Shown one piece after another: positions 36,298 through 43,655 of a stretch of 64,000 nt of DNA. Source of the DNA: Myxococcota bacterium (GTDB lineage: Bacteria > Myxococcota_A > SURF-8 > G963663525); assembly GCA_963676915.2 (NCBI GenBank), contig CAXXVK010000072.1, positions 64,001 through 128,000 of the forward strand. The letters are read 5' to 3'. The number at the start of each line of letters is the position of its first letter. Positions within the stretch are counted from its first letter, which is position 1. The notes beneath the pieces were generated by a model that worked only from the letters and a program-made list of their open reading frames with translations, was not told the DNA's origin and made no database searches. The translations under genes were made by a program, and so were the position numbers.

Positions 36298-36951
36298 ATG
36301 GAATCCCGAAATAATCATACCCGGTTGATGGATAGCATCTACGGGAAGCAGACGGCGATTTACGACCTGACACGCAAATACTACCTGCATGGTCGGGATA
36401 TGTTGCTCAAAGAAATCGAACGGGAATCCGACGGGCGGGTGCTCGAAGTCGGTTGCGGAACGGCGCGCAACCTGCTCGTTTTGCACCACCGTTGTCCCAC
36501 GTTCGAACTCTACGGACTCGATGCCAGCCGGGTAATGCTGGAGGTTGGCGAACGAAAGCTGGCCCGTCGGGGATATCCCGAAAACCTGCGATTGGTCCAC
36601 GGTCTGGCCGAAGACGTTTCACCGGCGCTATTCGGTGCGCGTGAACCCTTCGATACGGTATTTTTCTCGTTTTCGTTGAGCATGATTCCCGACTGGGAGG
36701 CTGGTCTCAAAGCTGCACTGGCCTCGCTGAAGCCTGGGGGAAGGCTGTATGTCGTGGATTTCGGAGATCTTTCCGGTCTTCCTGTGCCTCTTCGCCTGGG
36801 ACTTGCCTGGTGGCTCGACCGTTTCCACGTCCACCACCGCCCCGAAGCGATCCGATTTCTGCAACAACAGGCCGAAGAGGGCAGGGGTACTTTCGATTTA
36901 CAGATCTTTGCGGGAAACTATTCCTACCGGGTGAAGTTTACGAAAGCGTGA
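36298..36951 (+). CDS. btaB: Class I SAM methyltransferase, BtaB-like (betaine lipid DGTS N-methyltransferase)
   Basis: MDSIYGKQTAIYDLTRKYYLHGRDMLL, VLEVGCGTARNL, FSFSLSMIPDW, VVDFG, WLDRFHV. Confidence 0.7.
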   Translation: MESRNNHTRLMDSIYGKQTAIYDLTRKYYLHGRDMLLKEIERESDGRVLEVGCGTARNLLVLHHRCPTFELYGLDASRVMLEVGERKLARRGYPENLRLVHGLAEDVSPALFGAREPFDTVFFSFSLSMIPDWEAGLKAALASLKPGGRLYVVDFGDLSGLPVPLRLGLAWWLDRFHVHHRPEAIRFLQQQAEEGRGTFDLQIFAGNYSYRVKFTKA

Positions 36952-36964
36952 ATTTTTGCATTCG

Positions 36965-37133
36965 AAGAACTTGCATAAATCCCGAAGATAAATCTTCAAG
37001 GTACGGACCGGAAGGTCCGGGAGACTGTGCAAACTATTGAAAACACAGCCTTCCACGCTTCGCGCGTAAGACTATGGCACACATGGGTTTTGTAAAAACC
37101 ATCAAAATCCTGATTTATGCAAAAGCCACCTAA
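36965..37133. mobile_element. Candidate MITE (~165 bp) with IS5-like terminal inverted repeats
   Basis: TTGCATAAATC (36971-36981) and GATTTATGCAA (37112-37122) are perfect 11-bp inverted repeats. No ORF; between convergent genes. Confidence 0.5.
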
Positions 37134-37152
37134 GGCATTTCGACCGTTTTGT

Positions 37153-38817
37153 TTACTCCCCTTCGTGTCCTTCCAAAACTCGCTTGTAGATTTCCTCGAT
37201 GCTTTCGTTTTCGAAATCTCCCAGAGGTTTCGGGGTACGCATCAGGCGCACGAAGCGGTCACGGACCGTAGCAAGGTAGCTTGCGTCGTGGATGATACCC
37301 TCGCTTGTGTACGGCAGGTCGAAGAAGTCAAGCGTCGTTTCCGTTTCCGGGGCGATGTCCATACCGAGAAGGTCGGGTTTGGAATGCGCCAGACAGTTGC
37401 GGTTGAGTAAAAAAGTCTGCAAGATCGTCATGTGAATGTGCTGTCTGTGGCGCAGGCAGAATTTCAAGGTATGTTCGAACTCTTGCCGGTCTTCCTCCGG
37501 GCTTAGGATCAGGTACACGCTGGTCTCGATCCCCTGCGCGCTGGTGTTTTCCAGCATTTTCGGCACCTTTTCCAGATCGATACCCTTGCGGTAGCTTTTC
37601 AACCGCTGTTTGTGGGCGGTTTCCAACCCGAAGAAGATGATTCGACACCCGGCGCGGGCCAGCAGTTCGGTGTATTCGGGATCGGCGAATTCCTTATTGA
37701 AACGAGCCTGCATAAACCATTCGATCTCCAGTTTTTCGGCCAGCAGTCGTTCGCAGATTTCCTTTGTAGCTTGTGCGTTGACCGCATTGTCGATGAACGA
37801 AAAACGCCGGACGCCCGTCTGCTCGATGTATGTTCGGATGCGGCGGACGATTTCCTCCGGGTCGAGTTGAATCCATTGGCGGTCGTTGTAGTTGTGCCAG
37901 CAAAACGTGCATTTGCGGTAATAGCACATGCTGGCGCGTTCGATGGGCAACGAAAGTTCGGTGTAAAGGTCGAAATTAAGGCCGGAAAAATCAGGGGGCG
38001 GCAGGTGATCCAACGGCAGAGAGGGCTTTTCGTGGGTCGCTTGGGGGTGACCGTTTGCGTCGCGATAGATCAGGTTGGGTGTTTCTTTGAAATTTTCCTT
38101 GTTTTCGGTGAGATTCACCAGATCGAGCAAAGGTTCTTCTCCGTCGCTAGTGACGAAGAACTCGAAAAAGTCGAAGAAAAACGCATACTCTTTCCGTGTA
38201 AGAAAATCTCGTCCTAGCTTTACGTACGGTCCACCGGCGACCAGTGGAAGGTTGGGGCGAAAGCGTTTCAATTCACGGGCGAAGCGGCAGGCGTACACGA
38301 CCTGTTGCGGAGATACCAGCGAGATGCCGACCACGGACGGCTCGAAGCGGTCGAAAAACGTTTTCAGGCGCAATTTCAAAAAGGTATCCATCAGCGGATC
38401 GCGCACCTGGAGGCGTTCGAGCAGTTTGTCCCGGTTCAGACGATGGATTTCGGTTTGTTCGTAAAGCCAATTGAACAATTCTTTGCGATTTTCGTACACG
38501 AAGCGTCGCAGAGATTCCCCCGAAACGATGTTGCGATCCAGAAAACGCGCGTATAGCTGGCGGACCGAGCGGTAAAAGCCTTCGTCGCCTACTGAAAACG
38601 AGGTTTTGAGCCGTTTCATGAACAGCTCGAACGGGCCTTTTCGAAACAGAAAATCTCCCCAGTACAAGGCGTTCCAGTCGGCTTGCTGTACCGATTTTCC
38701 CTGTGTTTTCAGGTAGGCCGTAAGGCGGGGGAGGGCGATCTCCGGCATGAAATAGCATTCATAGGAGGGCGGAAAAACCAGCCAGGCATCGAGGGGTTGT
38801 ATATCTCGTGGCATCAA
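37153..38817 (-). CDS. Cobalamin-binding-domain radical SAM protein
   Basis: N-terminal WLVFPP...PEIALPRLTAYLK, VVGISL, VAGGP, DGEEPL, CYYRKCTFC, FFGLET. Start overlaps the upstream stop. Confidence 0.85.
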   Translation of the reverse strand: MMPRDIQPLDAWLVFPPSYECYFMPEIALPRLTAYLKTQGKSVQQADWNALYWGDFLFRKGPFELFMKRLKTSFSVGDEGFYRSVRQLYARFLDRNIVSGESLRRFVYENRKELFNWLYEQTEIHRLNRDKLLERLQVRDPLMDTFLKLRLKTFFDRFEPSVVGISLVSPQQVVYACRFARELKRFRPNLPLVAGGPYVKLGRDFLTRKEYAFFFDFFEFFVTSDGEEPLLDLVNLTENKENFKETPNLIYRDANGHPQATHEKPSLPLDHLPPPDFSGLNFDLYTELSLPIERASMCYYRKCTFCWHNYNDRQWIQLDPEEIVRRIRTYIEQTGVRRFSFIDNAVNAQATKEICERLLAEKLEIEWFMQARFNKEFADPEYTELLARAGCRIIFFGLETAHKQRLKSYRKGIDLEKVPKMLENTSAQGIETSVYLILSPEEDRQEFEHTLKFCLRHRQHIHMTILQTFLLNRNCLAHSKPDLLGMDIAPETETTLDFFDLPYTSEGIIHDASYLATVRDRFVRLMRTPKPLGDFENESIEEIYKRVLEGHEGE

Positions 38818-40346
38818 AAACGCTCCGCAAGCCGGTCGAACAACGGATGTTTCTTGCGCCCGGCGAAAATTTCGGCCTTCGAAAACAGCTTGAGATTGAA
38901 GGTTTTGTAGACATCTTCCATGAACGTTACCGGCAACTCGGGAGAAGCCAGCGGAAACAGGAAGGAATCGAGGTCTTCCAGTCCACGGTCTTCGTACAAA
39001 TGTCGGTATTTGTCGAAATCCTCCGTTCCCGGAATGGGGGTATAGACCCGGATGTCGATCAACACATGTCGCTCGATGATCGCTTTCAGGTCGTCGAGCA
39101 CGTCGTTTTCAGTTTGTCCCGGATAGCCGATCATGATGACCGCGTTGATACGCTGTCGTTCGAATCCTGCTGTCAATGCCGTTTCTACACCGGTATCGAA
39201 GCGCTTAAATAAGTGTCTACGGTGGAATTCGGCGATTTTGTCTTCTCGGGTCGTTTCGAGGGGCATGATGATGTCTTTGAAACCCACGGCTTTCATTTTT
39301 CGAGCCAGATCCATATTAAAACGAGCCAGGGAAAAACCGCTTGGCACGCCAAGGGAAATCCCTCCTTGCAAGTGTATCAACAAATCGAGCAATGCATGGG
39401 CTTGATCGAGATCCAACAATAGATCCGAATCCCAGAAATGCAGTTCACGCAGTCCCCACGCGGAATAGGTTTGCAACTGCTCCAACAGGCTGTCACGATC
39501 TAAAGAGCAGGCCCGGCCTTCCAGTTTACGAACCGCGCAATAGGAGCAATGGTTGTTGCAGCCGTACGAGCTTTTCAAGCTCATTGCCGGGCTTGCATAG
39601 TGTTTCCAGGTGGGTTCGTCGATCCACTGAGCGGCGAGTTCGGCATCCGTGCCGACGATGATTTCGTCCGCGCCGCTGTGCTCGGCATGTTCCGGGCAAA
39701 GGCTTGGATAAATGCCTCCCATCTTGACGTGAGCCGAAGGATAGCGTTCTTTTACCAGTTCGACGGCTTCCCAACTTGTCGGCCAACAGTATGTAAATAC
39801 AGAGGAAATCGCTACTTCTTCCACACCATCGGGAAGGCTTTTAAGTCGCTGCCGGATGTCGTCGGGCATCATGCCGATACGAAACACGGGACGGGCGATG
39901 CCTTCGTTTTCGTAATTGCCGCAGGGAGCCATCCTTCGAACCCGCTCACGACGGAAAAAGGTTTTCCGATTCATGACCGCAGAACCGAGGTTGAAGGCGT
40001 CGAGCAGGTGAACGTCATACCCCTGTTTGCGGTACTGGCTGACCAGTTTCAAGGCGGCAAGCGGAAAATTCGTGACGAAATCGAAGGCGTAGTCCATTAC
40101 CGCCATGGCCGGGTTTTCGAGCGGCGGTACGATAACCAACGCACGTTTCGTTTTTTTCAGCCTGGGAACGCCGGAAAGCGGAACGAAAGAGACACCACTG
40201 CTTTTAGAGATGCTTGTTGGTGGGAAGTTTTCGTGGCTCAGGGGCTTTTTCGTGACGGAATGAGGAGTTTTGGAGTTTTTTTTTTCGTCTCTTGTACAAG
40301 AGCGCCGGGGACTTCCATGCGACCGAAATCTTTCAGACGGTCGCAA
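38814..40346 (-). CDS. Cobalamin-binding-domain radical SAM module, probably the C-terminal half of a fusion with 40238..41782
   Basis: ALVIVPP, ISSVFTY, MGGIYPSLCPEHA, SYGCNNHCSYC, MIGYPGQ, YTPIPGT. No ATG or SD ahead of the domain. A10 run at 40276-40285. Confidence 0.8.
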   Translation of the reverse strand: MRPSERFRSHGSPRRSCTRDEKKNSKTPHSVTKKPLSHENFPPTSISKSSGVSFVPLSGVPRLKKTKRALVIVPPLENPAMAVMDYAFDFVTNFPLAALKLVSQYRKQGYDVHLLDAFNLGSAVMNRKTFFRRERVRRMAPCGNYENEGIARPVFRIGMMPDDIRQRLKSLPDGVEEVAISSVFTYCWPTSWEAVELVKERYPSAHVKMGGIYPSLCPEHAEHSGADEIIVGTDAELAAQWIDEPTWKHYASPAMSLKSSYGCNNHCSYCAVRKLEGRACSLDRDSLLEQLQTYSAWGLRELHFWDSDLLLDLDQAHALLDLLIHLQGGISLGVPSGFSLARFNMDLARKMKAVGFKDIIMPLETTREDKIAEFHRRHLFKRFDTGVETALTAGFERQRINAVIMIGYPGQTENDVLDDLKAIIERHVLIDIRVYTPIPGTEDFDKYRHLYEDRGLEDLDSFLFPLASPELPVTFMEDVYKTFNLKLFSKAEIFAGRKKHPLFDRLAERF

Positions 40347-41782
40347 TAGAACAAATCGTGAAGGCGGTAGTAGACCACGCGATCCACACCCGCTTTCAGC
40401 AGCAGATTGGGGAAATCCCGGTTGTCGGGATCGACGTAAGCCACCACGGTCACGTTGCGTTCAGACAGTCGCTTGATTCCCGCCAGCATGTGCTTGTGGC
40501 CGTTTTCGATGCGGACATACGCATCGTATTCCTCGGGTGTTTGTCCCCACACCGGAACGTGAACCTCGCGAAGTCCCGCTCGCGCGGCTTTTTCGGCCCG
40601 TTCCAGCGTGGCGAAGATCCGGGCGTTGCTGACGGCACAGGCATTGTAGCCGTGCTGTGTGATTTCCTCTAGGATATCAAAAGCTTCCGGGTGTAAGAAA
40701 GGCTCGCCGCCACGTAGCCAAATGTCGGAATAATGAAGCGTTTCGGTGTTCCAAAGCGCATCGAGTTGAGAACGGATGTCCGGTCCCATGGATTCGCTGC
40801 GGCTCTGGCATTCCGGACAGCCGTTGGTGCAACCGGTGTGGAACTCGATTTTTTGGAAATCTCCCAGCGGATACAAGTGGCTTTGGGGGTCCATGCCCTG
40901 CTCGATCATCCGCAAAAACTCCGGCGTCATCATCGGACAACGGGCCTCTTGGTGCCGTGGTGTGAAGAAATGATGTCGTTTGGCACGATCGAGGATGATT
41001 TCCAACGGTTCTTCGCGAATGTTGCCCAAATAGACCGGAACGAAATTACAGGGCTGCACTTCACCATAAGGCGAAATAAATAGCGAACCTCCGCTGATGG
41101 CGGGACAGCCTTCGAAGTCTGGCAGGTTCATACCTTCCGAAACGAAGACGAAGCGGTTGTCTACGTAACGGTTGACGGCGGCTTTTTCTTCGTCGGTAAG
41201 CAGGATGTCGTCGTTGTCGAACCAACTGCCGGATGCCAGCGGATACAACAGACGGATACCATTGACTTTTTTCCGTTTCGCTAGGGCGATCAGCTCTTCG
41301 AGTCGGCCGTCTTTGAGGTGTTCTCGGAAGATACAGGTCGAATAAAACACCGGGATACCTTCGTTTACAAGGATGTCCGTCGATTCCATGATTTCATCGA
41401 ACACGCCTTTACGACGATGCATCTGCTCGTTGAACTCGGGATCGGCGGAAAACAAACTCATATAGAGCAGGCTCAGGCGGGCTTGTTTCAGTTTGCGGGC
41501 GATGTCTTCGGTGATCCGTACACCGTTTGAGTCTAAGGTAAGGTATTGTGTTTTATCGCGAACCGCGTGGAGGATGTCGAAGATATCCTCTCGCAACAGC
41601 GCTTCCCCGCCGAAAAGATTCAGCTCTTTGAGTTTGTGTTCGGACGCGGCCTCGACGACGCGCCGGATTTCCTCGAAGGTCAATTCTCCTTTAGGATCGA
41701 CCGGGTACGAACCTTGAGAGCAATGCACGCAACGACACTGGCAACGATAGGTTACACCCAAAATCAGTCGTTCCAGTTTCAT
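40238..41782 (-). CDS. Tandem radical SAM protein: rSAM + SPASM/twitch + second rSAM domain
   Basis: CQCRCVHC...FGGEALL; GCPA...ISPYGEVQPC...GNIRE...RCP; CTNGCPEC...RGGEPFLHP...SNARIF. ATG at 41782 after GGAG. Confidence 0.85.
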   Translation of the reverse strand: MKLERLILGVTYRCQCRCVHCSQGSYPVDPKGELTFEEIRRVVEAASEHKLKELNLFGGEALLREDIFDILHAVRDKTQYLTLDSNGVRITEDIARKLKQARLSLLYMSLFSADPEFNEQMHRRKGVFDEIMESTDILVNEGIPVFYSTCIFREHLKDGRLEELIALAKRKKVNGIRLLYPLASGSWFDNDDILLTDEEKAAVNRYVDNRFVFVSEGMNLPDFEGCPAISGGSLFISPYGEVQPCNFVPVYLGNIREEPLEIILDRAKRHHFFTPRHQEARCPMMTPEFLRMIEQGMDPQSHLYPLGDFQKIEFHTGCTNGCPECQSRSESMGPDIRSQLDALWNTETLHYSDIWLRGGEPFLHPEAFDILEEITQHGYNACAVSNARIFATLERAEKAARAGLREVHVPVWGQTPEEYDAYVRIENGHKHMLAGIKRLSERNVTVVAYVDPDNRDFPNLLLKAGVDRVVYYRLHDLFYCDRLKDFGRMEVPGALVQETKKKTPKLLIPSRKSP

Positions 41783-41836
41783 GCCTGTATACTCCAAAAG
41801 ATTCGACGAAAAAGCCGATAACGTTCGATTCAAAAG

Positions 41837-41864
41837 AGTATGCGATGATTCGACCGGCTGTCAA
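41837..41864 (-). promoter_or_regulatory. Sigma-70-type promoter of the radical SAM operon
   Basis: TTGACA (41864-41859)-16 nt-CATACT (41842-41837), ~55 nt before the ATG. Confidence 0.5.
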
Positions 41865-42071
41865 GGTACATGGTTAGTAAGCACGAACATTGATTGAAAA
41901 ATGGGGAACAATTCTTCTTTTTTCAGAGAGGAAAATTGGAAAAAGAAGGAAATATCTGCATTTTCGGTGAGAATCGTGTTTGCCTCCTTGATTTCATTCA
42001 TGATTTCCCGATAAATTACTATTAGGTGTTTATGTTCGATTTGTATTGTTGAAAAAAAGGAACAGACGGGT

Positions 42072-43655
42072 ATGTCGGGTTCTATGGTGCAAAAAACATA
42101 TTTCGCGCCAGCCGAGCGGGCTTCGAAAGAAGAAATCAAAGAGGCGTGGCACAAGGTGCTGGATGCTGGTCTTGTATCTTCCGTTCTCGATGCCATGCCT
42201 CAACCGGCCATGATTCTCAATAGCCAGCGGCAAATCATTGCTGTGAATCGGCATATGGTCAAAGAATTGGGGTTTTCCTCCCATGAAGAGGCATTGGGTA
42301 ACCGCCCCGGAGAACTTTTCGGTTGCTACGAAGCGAAAGAAGCTCCAAACGGTTGTGGAACGGGAAAAAATTGCCGATATTGCGGACTTCTTAAAACGGT
42401 TTTAACGGCTACGAAGGCGGATACCGAAGTCGGTGGGGAGTGCTCTGTTCGTTTGGCTTCCGGAAAAGCCATGGAATATCATGTGCTTGCAGCTTTGAAA
42501 AAAATCGACGACCTATCGGTTGTGTTTATTGGATTGCGGGATTTGTCTGCCGAAAAACGCCGGAAAATTCTGGAACGCACTTTTTTTCACGATATTCTTA
42601 ATACGGCTGGTGGTATCAAAGGTTTCATGACGTTGATCGAGTCTGAAAATCCAACCGATGCCAACAAAGAATTCCGTGAATCCATTGCCGCGCTTTCCAA
42701 CGTACTGGTCGATGAAATCCACAGCTACCGTCAGTTAGCCCAAGCTGAAGACGATTCGCTCGTTTTGCACAAAACCACCATTTCCATTCGCCGTTTCATA
42801 GAAAACCTGCGCATTCTCTACAAAGGGCACCAGGTTGCGAAAGGCAAGACGATTCGAATTGCTGTCTTCGATGACCGAAGGCTTCATACGGATCTCTCGC
42901 TCTTGCGCCGTGTTCTGGCTAATATGCTGAAAAACGGTTTGGAAGCCACCCCCGAAGGTGAATCCGTCGTTCTCGACGTTTGTAACGGTGCCGATTTCGT
43001 TGAGTTTTCGGTGGCCAATCCGGGCGTTATGTCTCCCGAAATACAAGCGCAGATCTTTCACCGTTCTTTCAGTACCAAAGGACAGGATCGTGGTTTGGGA
43101 ACCTACAGTATGAAACTGTTGGGAGAACGATACCTCGGAGGCTTAGTGACGTTCGAAAGTCGCCCGGAAATCGGCACCGTTTTCCGTTTTCGACTTCACG
43201 GAGAAACGGCGAATCAGTCGGAAGAAGAGACGCTTGTTCCCGTTGTGGAAGAAAAACAGGATGAGCAGGAAAAACTGAGTCGGATTCGAGTGTTGCTGGC
43301 TGATGATGACCGTTTCAGTCGTACGGTCAATGCCATTATGCTCAAAGACATGGTTGGTTCGGTTCATGAGGCGGAAAACGGCCGGGACGTGTTGAAATGC
43401 CTGCAGCCGGGGATGTTCGATATTGTCCTGCTCGATGTGCACATGCCGGTTATGGATGGTTTGGAAACCGCTCGGGCCATTCGAAAAATGGATGGTTTGA
43501 AGGACTTGCCGGTTCTCGCCATTACCGCCGGGACGTTGGAGGAAGACCGGATTGCTTGTCTCGAAGCCGGAATGAACGATTTTATCGATAAACCGGTAGA
43601 TCCCGACGATCTTCGTCGTAGCCTGATCCAATGGGCTATCGATAAAACCTTCTAA
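42072..43655 (+). CDS. Hybrid sensor histidine kinase (Cys-rich PAS + HK + receiver)
   Basis: GNRPGELFGC...GCGTGKNCRYC, FFHDILN, NMLKNGLEA, FSTKGQDRGLGTY, receiver LLADDD...LLDVHMPVMDG...KP. Confidence 0.9.
   Translation: MSGSMVQKTYFAPAERASKEEIKEAWHKVLDAGLVSSVLDAMPQPAMILNSQRQIIAVNRHMVKELGFSSHEEALGNRPGELFGCYEAKEAPNGCGTGKNCRYCGLLKTVLTATKADTEVGGECSVRLASGKAMEYHVLAALKKIDDLSVVFIGLRDLSAEKRRKILERTFFHDILNTAGGIKGFMTLIESENPTDANKEFRESIAALSNVLVDEIHSYRQLAQAEDDSLVLHKTTISIRRFIENLRILYKGHQVAKGKTIRIAVFDDRRLHTDLSLLRRVLANMLKNGLEATPEGESVVLDVCNGADFVEFSVANPGVMSPEIQAQIFHRSFSTKGQDRGLGTYSMKLLGERYLGGLVTFESRPEIGTVFRFRLHGETANQSEEETLVPVVEEKQDEQEKLSRIRVLLADDDRFSRTVNAIMLKDMVGSVHEAENGRDVLKCLQPGMFDIVLLDVHMPVMDGLETARAIRKMDGLKDLPVLAITAGTLEEDRIACLEAGMNDFIDKPVDPDDLRRSLIQWAIDKTF

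Follow-up and report, generated by a model that had tools for sequence, protein, structure and literature searches.

A conserved A10 run between two reading frames of a multi-domain radical SAM operon in Myxococcota as a candidate recoding site

The 64,000-nucleotide stretch of DNA analyzed here (hereafter, the window) corresponds to positions 64,001 to 128,000 of contig CAXXVK010000072.1 (C72) of the Myxococcota bacterium assembly GCA_963676915.2 (G000), a 5.18-Mb genome of 74 contigs that is 90.8% complete, and the relatives of which are titled Myxococcota or Myxococcales metagenome-assembled genomes. On its minus strand, the window carries three co-oriented, head-to-tail open reading frames (ORFs), denoted here A, B, and C, which contain four radical S-adenosylmethionine (rSAM) cores. 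The A and B frames meet at a run of ten adenines (A10; 40276-40285), which is the subject of the present analysis, as a candidate site of slippage or frameshifting through which a short, two-rSAM product and a long, three-rSAM product may be obtained from one locus.

ORF A (41782-40238) encodes the 514-amino acid (aa) product of the 0 frame, from an ATG with a GGAG 8-11 nt upstream, and is composed, according to Pfam, of rSAM core 1 (~41755-41288), a SPASM/twitch-like region (~41095-40964), and rSAM core 2 (~40849-40442). The B-frame ORF (40277-38814, open from 40346) is offset by -1 relative to A: codons start at 1 mod 3 in A and at 2 mod 3 in B, and the addition of one A (or the loss of two) joins 41782-38814 into 990 codons. 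In the 0 frame, the run reads ACG AAA AAA AAA ACU, with an A_AAA_AAA heptamer, and the stop of A falls 12 codons past it. In the B frame, the run is followed by a linker of 46 codons (40140-40277), which reaches the first B12-binding strand (ALVIVPP), and then by the B domain itself (38814-40139), with its B12-binding region (~39863-39639) and rSAM core 3 (~39572-39084), as delimited by Pfam. ORF C (38814-37153) contains a predicted B12-binding region (~38352-38188) and rSAM core 4 (~37917-37456), and has a GGAG 9 nt upstream of its ATG. The stop of B (TGA, 38816-38814) overlaps the start of C (ATG, 38814-38812), forming TGATG in the window, and ATGA in G001, a second genome of the same genus (85% aa identity in A). 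This is the stop/start overlap from which coupling of B and C was proposed in the first-pass annotation of this DNA, and it suggests that the translation of C is partly tied to the ribosomes reading B.

The run is found unaltered in all three DNA sequences of the genus. In G001, an identical 18-nt island (GACG-A10-CTCC) is present with the same -1 offset, and the 0-frame stop is also located exactly 12 codons past the run, in an operon that is ~77% identical to that of the window at the nucleotide level, with a synonymous divergence (dS) of 1.1-1.4, and in which the 60-nt segments after the run are only 27-53% identical. A 615-bp contig from a different study (X4), which lies on 40106-40720, is ~94% identical to the window, with 35 substitutions, 0 gaps, and the A10 unchanged. 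The four A proteins available at the genus level, that is, that of the window, P0001 (98% identical), that of G001, and P0156 (99% identical to that of G001), are all 514 aa in length, with the same 0-frame tail, and the contigs that encode them measure 254 kb, 31 kb, 1.85 Mb, and 201 kb. As the differences found in P0001 match the X4 substitutions, P0001 belongs to the X4 lineage. The whole 5.18-Mb genome contains just six A/T runs of 10, including this one, and none that is longer, while G001 has eight. The strict conservation of the A10 cannot be explained by dual coding, given that a synonymous change from AAA to AAG in A would alter only a non-conserved residue of the B-frame linker.

These records indicate that the A10 is real and is maintained in the genus. 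The first-pass annotation had implied that an A11 had been miscalled as A10, in place of a continuous ORF of 989 aa, and that this proposal would fail if the reads confirmed ten adenines. The recovery of the A10 in G000, G001, and the X4 contig, with the same offset in G001, 35 substitutions and no gap in X4, and the same tail in all four of the genus proteins, does not support the miscall. If the A10 is genuine, the continuous 989-aa ORF is not encoded as such in the genome, and the fusion would need recoding. The locus presents the organization expected of a slippage site, that is, a homopolymer of at least ~9 at the junction of two ORFs that a one-base change would fuse, with the run and the ORF arrangement being retained in two species (G001, X4, and the four proteins) while the surrounding sequence diverges.

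Outside the genus, A is fused in frame to a B12-rSAM domain. A protein search with A, which covered 1.84 billion representatives, recovered A's own cluster (P0001, 514 aa), followed by matches of 964, 1064, 1000, 942, and 934 aa, which are A-like over their first ~450-506 residues, and the nearest representatives from other genera (964-1064 aa) align to residues 1-504 of A. In P0002 (964 aa), P0004 (1000 aa), and P0152-P0155, the A module runs on into a B-type domain, and B is orthologous to the C-terminal half of the fused P0002 and P0004. In P0003, P0005, and P0006, the A module continues into another B12-rSAM domain, and the ortholog of B is then a separate gene (G007, G118). An A module and a B12-rSAM domain share one stop-free frame at all eight non-genus loci with a full-length A homolog (L017, L028, L029, L030, L034, L035, L036, and L123; 934-1064 aa), six of which have A~B and then C, in the same order as the window. 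No A/T run of at least 7 was found in the five non-genus A~B genes scanned, while a scan of metagenomes recovered no genus-level relatives, and full-length homologs only in L034, L035, and L036. Of the 50 pattern matches that a contig scan with B alone produced, none was confirmed. The fusion at these eight loci upholds the initial view that A and B belong together, and runs counter to the scenario in which their homologs would always be two genes. Overall, the alignments indicate that a single ancestral gene of ~1000 codons gave rise to both A and B, as its two halves.

The B half has the signature of a functional coding sequence. Between the window and G001, dN/dS is 0.056 in A, 0.084 in B, and 0.10 in C, and the value for B implies purifying selection and function, which rules out the possibility of a pseudogene. 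The linker has 46 codons in the window and 67 in G001, a difference of 63 nt, or 21 whole codons. No stop interrupts its B frame in either the window or G001 (shuffle P of 0.147 and 0.084; joint ~0.012), with stops being found in the other frames. The comparison with X4 across the run takes in 26 of its 35 substitutions, eight of them in the linker and 18 before the run. Upstream of the run, 15 of the 18 substitutions are synonymous in the A frame and one in the B frame, whereas in the linker, five of the eight are synonymous in the B frame and none in the A frame.

Where the translation of the B frame begins can be narrowed down by the same sequences. The linker of the window has no ATG, GTG, or TTG in the B frame. 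The residues that immediately precede ALVIVPP, and with it the TTG and GTG codons of this strand, are retained through synonymous changes, so that these codons, and the later ATG, are excluded as sole starts. Ahead of the linker, there is a single canonical alternative start, a TTG (40344-40346), 22 codons before the run, which opens the B frame within the conserved FYCD codons of A, and is also found in G001. The comparison indicates that the translation of the B frame begins at or before the run, either through a shift at the run itself or from the TTG at 40346. The claim that B has no credible start thus holds in part: the TTG has no Shine-Dalgarno (SD)-like motif upstream, but it does open the B frame inside A, and an SD motif is found at just ~28% of the first starts (2769 long ORFs of the window's genome), in comparison with 9% in a control window.

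Given this, the conserved A10 is considered somewhat more probably than otherwise to be a maintained recoding site, which would give rise to both a short and a long product. This reading builds on the anatomy of the operon, its fused ancestry, the conservation of the A10, the purifying selection on B, and the B-frame constraint on the linker, and we infer from these DNA and protein sequences both the slippage itself and the role of the fusion as the functional product. In the proposed mechanism, the A10 tract of the genus, located in the interdomain linker, would put the B half in the -1 frame, and standard decoding would stop 12 codons past the tract, yielding the 514-aa protein with two rSAM domains. 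When RNA polymerase adds one A to the tract (or drops two), a fusion of ~989 aa with three rSAM domains would be produced, and the same fusion would result, alternatively, from a ribosome slipping by -1 on A_AAA_AAA. As C would be translationally coupled to the stop of B, the locus would deliver a set ratio of the short and long isoforms. A short product of 514 aa is plausible as an enzyme, given that A-like proteins of ~515 aa stand alone at 23-28% identity (P0034 and others). A more specific version, in which programmed slippage at the A10 in a free-living genus acts as a fixed-ratio switch between the two-rSAM and three-rSAM isoforms, and also gates C through the coupling, perhaps as one of several A9/A10 sites in the genus, is put forward tentatively, and falls a little short of being probable. 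There are precedents for such behavior, as A/T runs of at least 9 are described as slippage-prone and as being exploited in gene expression (PMC1088944), an A9 that follows a stem-loop in IS1447 is reported to slip at ~16% each way (PMC6211511), and in tssM1 of Citrobacter rodentium, an A11 located before a stop is reported to lead to two proteins of different lengths, neither of which is dispensable (PMC4256274; Gueguen et al. 2014).

A number of observations weigh against recoding at the A10. The RNA features that might stimulate it are weak: the 5-bp hairpin CUCUU-GUAC-AAGAG (40289-40302), 3 nt upstream of the run, is predicted at the same place in G001 (3-4 nt upstream, with one U-A to C-G change), but is no better than shuffled sequence in either genome (z of -0.16 in the window and 0.05 in G001). 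No 3' stimulatory structure is predicted in the 70 nt that follow the run in the window (-0.6 kcal/mol), and the equivalent region of G001 is unremarkable (z -0.06). An SD-like GGAGGGG is found upstream of the run in G001 only, and Rfam returned no matches at E-values of up to 1 over 36900-42200, including no frameshift element. The sample of the genus is limited to two species, with two strains each, and the sequences over the run are assembled contigs, which cannot show length heterogeneity. The contigs of two other runs, X2 and X3, do not extend over the A10, and the search for RNA data sets that contain the locus found none. The linker test is based on eight sites (binomial P 0.027, or 0.11 with transitions only), and the constraint on the coding sequence of the linker would follow just as readily from initiation at the TTG at 40346, with the missing SD motif being weak evidence against this start because only ~28% of first starts have one. 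Stand-alone orthologs of B are also found in G007, G118, G005, and G398, which implies that B can work as a separate polypeptide, and in G005 and G398, B and C occur as a pair without A.

These last observations lead to the strongest of the rival explanations, a true split of the ancestral gene, in which one base of the linker was lost and the loss was fixed in the ancestor of the genus, leaving A (514 aa) and B as separate subunits, with either the TTG at 40346 or some non-canonical codon serving as the start of B, and the A10 simply being tolerated. The existence of independent B orthologs in those four genomes and of independent A-like proteins such as P0034, the presence of the TTG in both genomes, the fact that translation from it would account for an open and constrained linker, and the non-universality of SD motifs in this genome are all consistent with a split. 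It leaves unexplained, however, why an 18-nt island with the A10 should be identical at a dS of over 1 while its flanks and both frames diverge freely, when a synonymous AAA to AAG change in the tail of A would cost only a non-conserved linker residue in B, and when long A runs are described as being generally selected against in coding DNA (PMC1088944). The TTG, in turn, is internal to a translated ORF and lacks an SD-like motif, and the A10 would still be expected to yield some fused product if the RNA polymerase acts like those that have been studied. On balance, a split gene is judged to be unlikely, if a serious contender.

Two further explanations concern the length of the run itself. 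If the true sequence were an A11, the locus would be a plain ORF of 989 codons and the A10 an artefact of sequencing or assembly, which is conceivable in so far as indel errors fall most often in homopolymers, the word depth of the source run at the locus is low (6.4), no A/T run in G000 or G001 exceeds 10, and a PtsI-like gene is broken at an A9 in the same genome, which may reflect homopolymer errors in the assembly. An error of this kind would have to recur, however, with the same length and offset, in three DNA sequences (G000, G001, and X4) from different assemblies and two studies, and in the 514-aa product of four genus proteins from four contigs. The PtsI-like case requires one A fewer, rather than one more, which argues against a single systematic bias, and the absence of runs of at least 11 is close to expectation (1.2 under a model of independent, identically distributed bases), all of which makes an artefact very improbable. 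The least probable explanation is that of a phase-variable locus, in which replication slippage within populations would switch B and the fusion off (A10) or on (A11). An A10 tract is hypermutable in replication, and switching at homopolymer tracts is described in other bacteria (PMC9187656), yet the three DNA and four protein sequences are all in the same phase, whereas random switching should leave lineages in different phases, and the contigs contain no alternative form, although contigs do drop rare variants. Recoding at the A10 is thus retained as the preferred reading.

The A10 also has to be seen against the other homopolymers of the genome, which has 44 A/T runs of at least 9, a few others of which are located at frame switches. 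A second A10 (G000:C25:11171-11180, L114:1672-1681) is also found in G001 (G001:C1:550750-550759, L122), with the same offset in both genomes. An AAA/Mg-chelatase-like ORF stops 11 codons past this run, across which a VWA-domain ORF remains open in the -1 frame. The run is abutted by a strong hairpin in G000 and G001 (-11 and -13.8 kcal/mol; z -2.55 and -2.08), and the sequence past it is more conserved in the -1 frame than in the 0-frame tail; elsewhere, the AAA and VWA homologs share a frame at one locus, and are in different frames at two. The A9 at G000:C72:200488-200496 (L117:1289-1297) splits the PtsI-like gene, a PEP-utilising enzyme, into an ORF of 256 codons, with the N-terminal and mobile domains, and an ORF of 369 codons, with the C domain. 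Its orthologs in G001, G007, G005, and G004 are intact, each with one ORF (586-626 aa), with no A run at this point in G001, and the frame is repaired by one A fewer, so that the break would be either an assembly error or a strain-specific frameshift. Another A9 (G000:C55:26720-26728, L116:1521-1529) precedes the end of a Prim-Pol ORF (446 codons) by 19 codons, and is followed, in another frame, by an ORF of 457 codons with no Pfam family, which has an ATG shortly past the run; these are probably just adjacent genes. A T9 run in C43 was rejected as a frameshift site, as it is part of a hairpin-plus-T9 terminator. These runs cut both ways, hinting at a wider use or tolerance of slippage, and also at possible homopolymer errors in the assembly.

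The identity of the encoded proteins as rSAM enzymes is well founded. All four cysteine motifs listed in the first-pass annotation (CQCRCVHC, CTNGCPEC, CNNHCSYC, and CYYRKCTFC) are found in the translations of A, B, and C, and Pfam places each cysteine triad within a Radical_SAM domain (PF04055) above the gathering threshold, with 125.8 bits in two stretches, together with SPASM, in A, 66.7 bits in B, and 64.2 bits in C. Core 2, which contains the second motif, for which the first-pass annotation had left room for a fold other than rSAM, passes the cut-off when scanned alone (E 4e-10; 40.6 bits against 29.5), and the domain order agrees with the proposed architecture of rSAM-SPASM-rSAM followed by B12-rSAM. 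The CX3CX2C and GGE motifs of both A cores are invariant across seven fused homologs, as are three cysteines of the SPASM region. A full SPASM domain has a 7-cysteine motif and two clusters, and a twitch domain has one cluster. The SPASM match in A (PF13186) reaches 30.3 bits against a cut-off of 21.5, and has only these three invariant cysteines (C226, C245, and C282 in the numbering of P0002), so the auxiliary region of A looks twitch-like, with one auxiliary cluster. Cobalamin-dependent (class B) rSAM enzymes have an N-terminal B12-binding Rossmann domain (PF02310) ahead of the rSAM core. The matches to it are below the gathering score of 32.1 in B (27.2 bits) and C (22.7 bits), and are above it in the homologs P0002 (34.1 bits) and P0005 (66.6 bits). 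The triad of C (CYYRKCTFC, in the 37917-37945 region) is CX4CX2C, rather than the canonical CX3CX2C, a spacing that is retained in the C orthologs (CYWKRCVFC and CYWRRCIFC, in P0003 and L028/L029).

Assignment to a known function fails at the level of individual families. None of the NCBIfam equivalogs considered for A (AhbD, NirJ, MoaA, PqqE, and Tes) reaches its cut-off, with the best, AhbD, scoring 119 bits against 500, and the same is true for B and C of PhpK, ApyD, TIGR03975, HpnR, and BchE, the best score of B being 50 against 575. The best NCBIfam matches of C are PhpK, ApyD, and TIGR03975, all far below their cut-offs (PhpK, 94.8 against 600). In the PDB, sequence matches are remote, with MoaA for A, and OxsB (1.4e-9) as the sole match for C, while the search with B returned none. 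A profile of the fused homologs matches solved rSAM enzymes core by core, with PqqE/MoaA for core 1, BlsE/DesII for core 2, and RimO/TsrM/AprD4 for core 3, all at a remote level (E-values of 7e-14 to 1e-7).

Multiple rSAM domains in one polypeptide are also found in other proteins related to A. Pfam finds three Radical_SAM stretches in P0002, P0003, P0004, and P0005, with a module order that equals A plus B, and the ESM Atlas holds an unnamed cluster of 53 members, of ~937 aa, mostly from Myxococcota. In P0044 (897 aa), a MiaB/RimO-like domain is combined with the rSAM-SPASM-rSAM module of A, giving three Radical_SAM stretches, while P0066 (1260 aa) has four, and in P0015 (1443 aa), a C-like B12-type domain precedes the A module. 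Three- and four-rSAM proteins do, then, exist as single ORFs, all of which are uncharacterized, in line with the initial remark that no characterized protein with three rSAM domains was known, and a phrase search of the literature found no paper describing a three-rSAM-domain protein.

The sequences around the operon provide some indications of its regulation and chemistry. A sigma-70-like promoter match (41837-41864, minus strand; TTGACA-16 nt-CATACT) lies 55 nt before the ATG of A, as had been anticipated, and the nucleotide alignment shows that the block is retained in G001. Taken by itself, this match (10/12) is weak, as two such sites are found in the region, in comparison with 2.9 expected. 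A TTG at 41833, listed as an alternative start of A, adjoins the predicted -10 box. A hybrid histidine kinase/response-regulator gene (42072-43655, plus strand) is divergent from the operon, and retains this position in G001 (L016:9793-11433, plus strand), while in G005, a Cache-GGDEF sensor adjoins the B/C pair; such sensor genes represent a possible regulatory link. There is no precursor-like small ORF adjoining the operon in the window, which agrees with the first-pass annotation, and no conserved non-rSAM partner or precursor was found in the window or in the flanks of L016, L017, L028, L030, L031, L033, L034, and L036. The only genes that recur in the flanks of these eight related loci are further rSAM/B12-rSAM genes and those encoding signaling proteins. 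Extra rSAM/B12-rSAM genes are located beside the fused gene at L017:10013-12402 (minus strand), L016:1577-3025 (plus strand), L028:9077-10441 (minus strand), and L030:6214-7767 (minus strand), which implies that some clusters have five or six rSAM cores. Judging by the domain families, the enzymes would carry out radical chemistry in several steps, some of them probably dependent on cobalamin (methylation, for instance). Their substrate, encoded elsewhere, may be a lipid, a peptide, or a sugar or other small molecule, and an assembly line of this type, as envisaged initially, is plausible.

If the recoding is confirmed, a metabolic metalloenzyme would join the short list of cellular genes in which the full product is encoded across two frames, and the operon would stand out among conserved recoding sites, few of which are found in core biosynthetic enzymes rather than in mobile elements, dnaX, prfB, or secretion systems. 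A further implication would be that evolution can exchange a fixed fusion of domains for a tunable one. With regard to annotation, the locus is a warning that the gene calls of 514 aa and ~440 aa in these genomes are the halves of one unit. For rSAM enzymology, it draws attention to a small, uncharacterized family, mostly of Myxococcota, with three to four complete rSAM cores per polypeptide and a partner B12-rSAM. No solved structure is close to this family, and no substrate gene adjoins it.

Comparison with known systems concerns both the protein and the run. FbiC contains two rSAM domains (CofG and CofH), and shares with the fused homologs (P0002-P0006, P0044, and P0066) the presence of several complete rSAM cores per polypeptide; the third domain of the homologs is in frame, whereas that of the window would be reached only through recoding. 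The nearest solved rSAM enzymes share the common core and cluster motif, the SPASM/twitch-like extension in the case of core 1, and a putative cobalamin-type N-terminal domain in that of core 3 and C, but they are remote profile matches only, which allow no safe inference on the substrate.

With regard to the run, the -1 frameshifting of the Escherichia coli dnaX on A_AAA_AAG (PMC5009743, PMC1851650) is similar in its 0-frame, lysine-codon slippery heptamer, and in the alternative C-terminus that results from a -1 shift. The window has an A_AAA_AAA of the X_XXY_YYZ type, which ends in AAA rather than AAG, and no downstream stem-loop is predicted, the 3' 70 nt being unstructured, with the SD-like stimulator restricted to G001. 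The dnaX of Thermus thermophilus and insertion sequence (IS) elements such as IS1447 (PMC1088944, PMC5009743, PMC6211511) have, like the window, at least nine A's in coding sequence at a two-frame junction, and in IS1447 and other A9-type sites, as proposed here, the fused product needs a one-base change in the mRNA. In the Thermus dnaX, the long product is in frame and slippage gives the short one, whereas the short product is the one in frame here. A stem-loop precedes the IS1447 run, whereas the hairpin here is weak, and the IS elements are mobile, in contrast with a chromosomal enzyme operon. The tssM1 of C. rodentium (PMC4256274) is also a multidomain gene, with a C-terminal domain out of frame and a poly-A just before a premature stop, and its slippage gives short and full-length variants of one gene, an outcome like the one proposed here. 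The run has 11 A's in tssM1 and 10 here, and both the slippage and the need for the two isoforms are described from experiments in that gene. The tssM1 product is a membrane protein of the type VI secretion system, whereas that of the window would be a metalloenzyme, the run of which is retained across two species at a dS of over 1.

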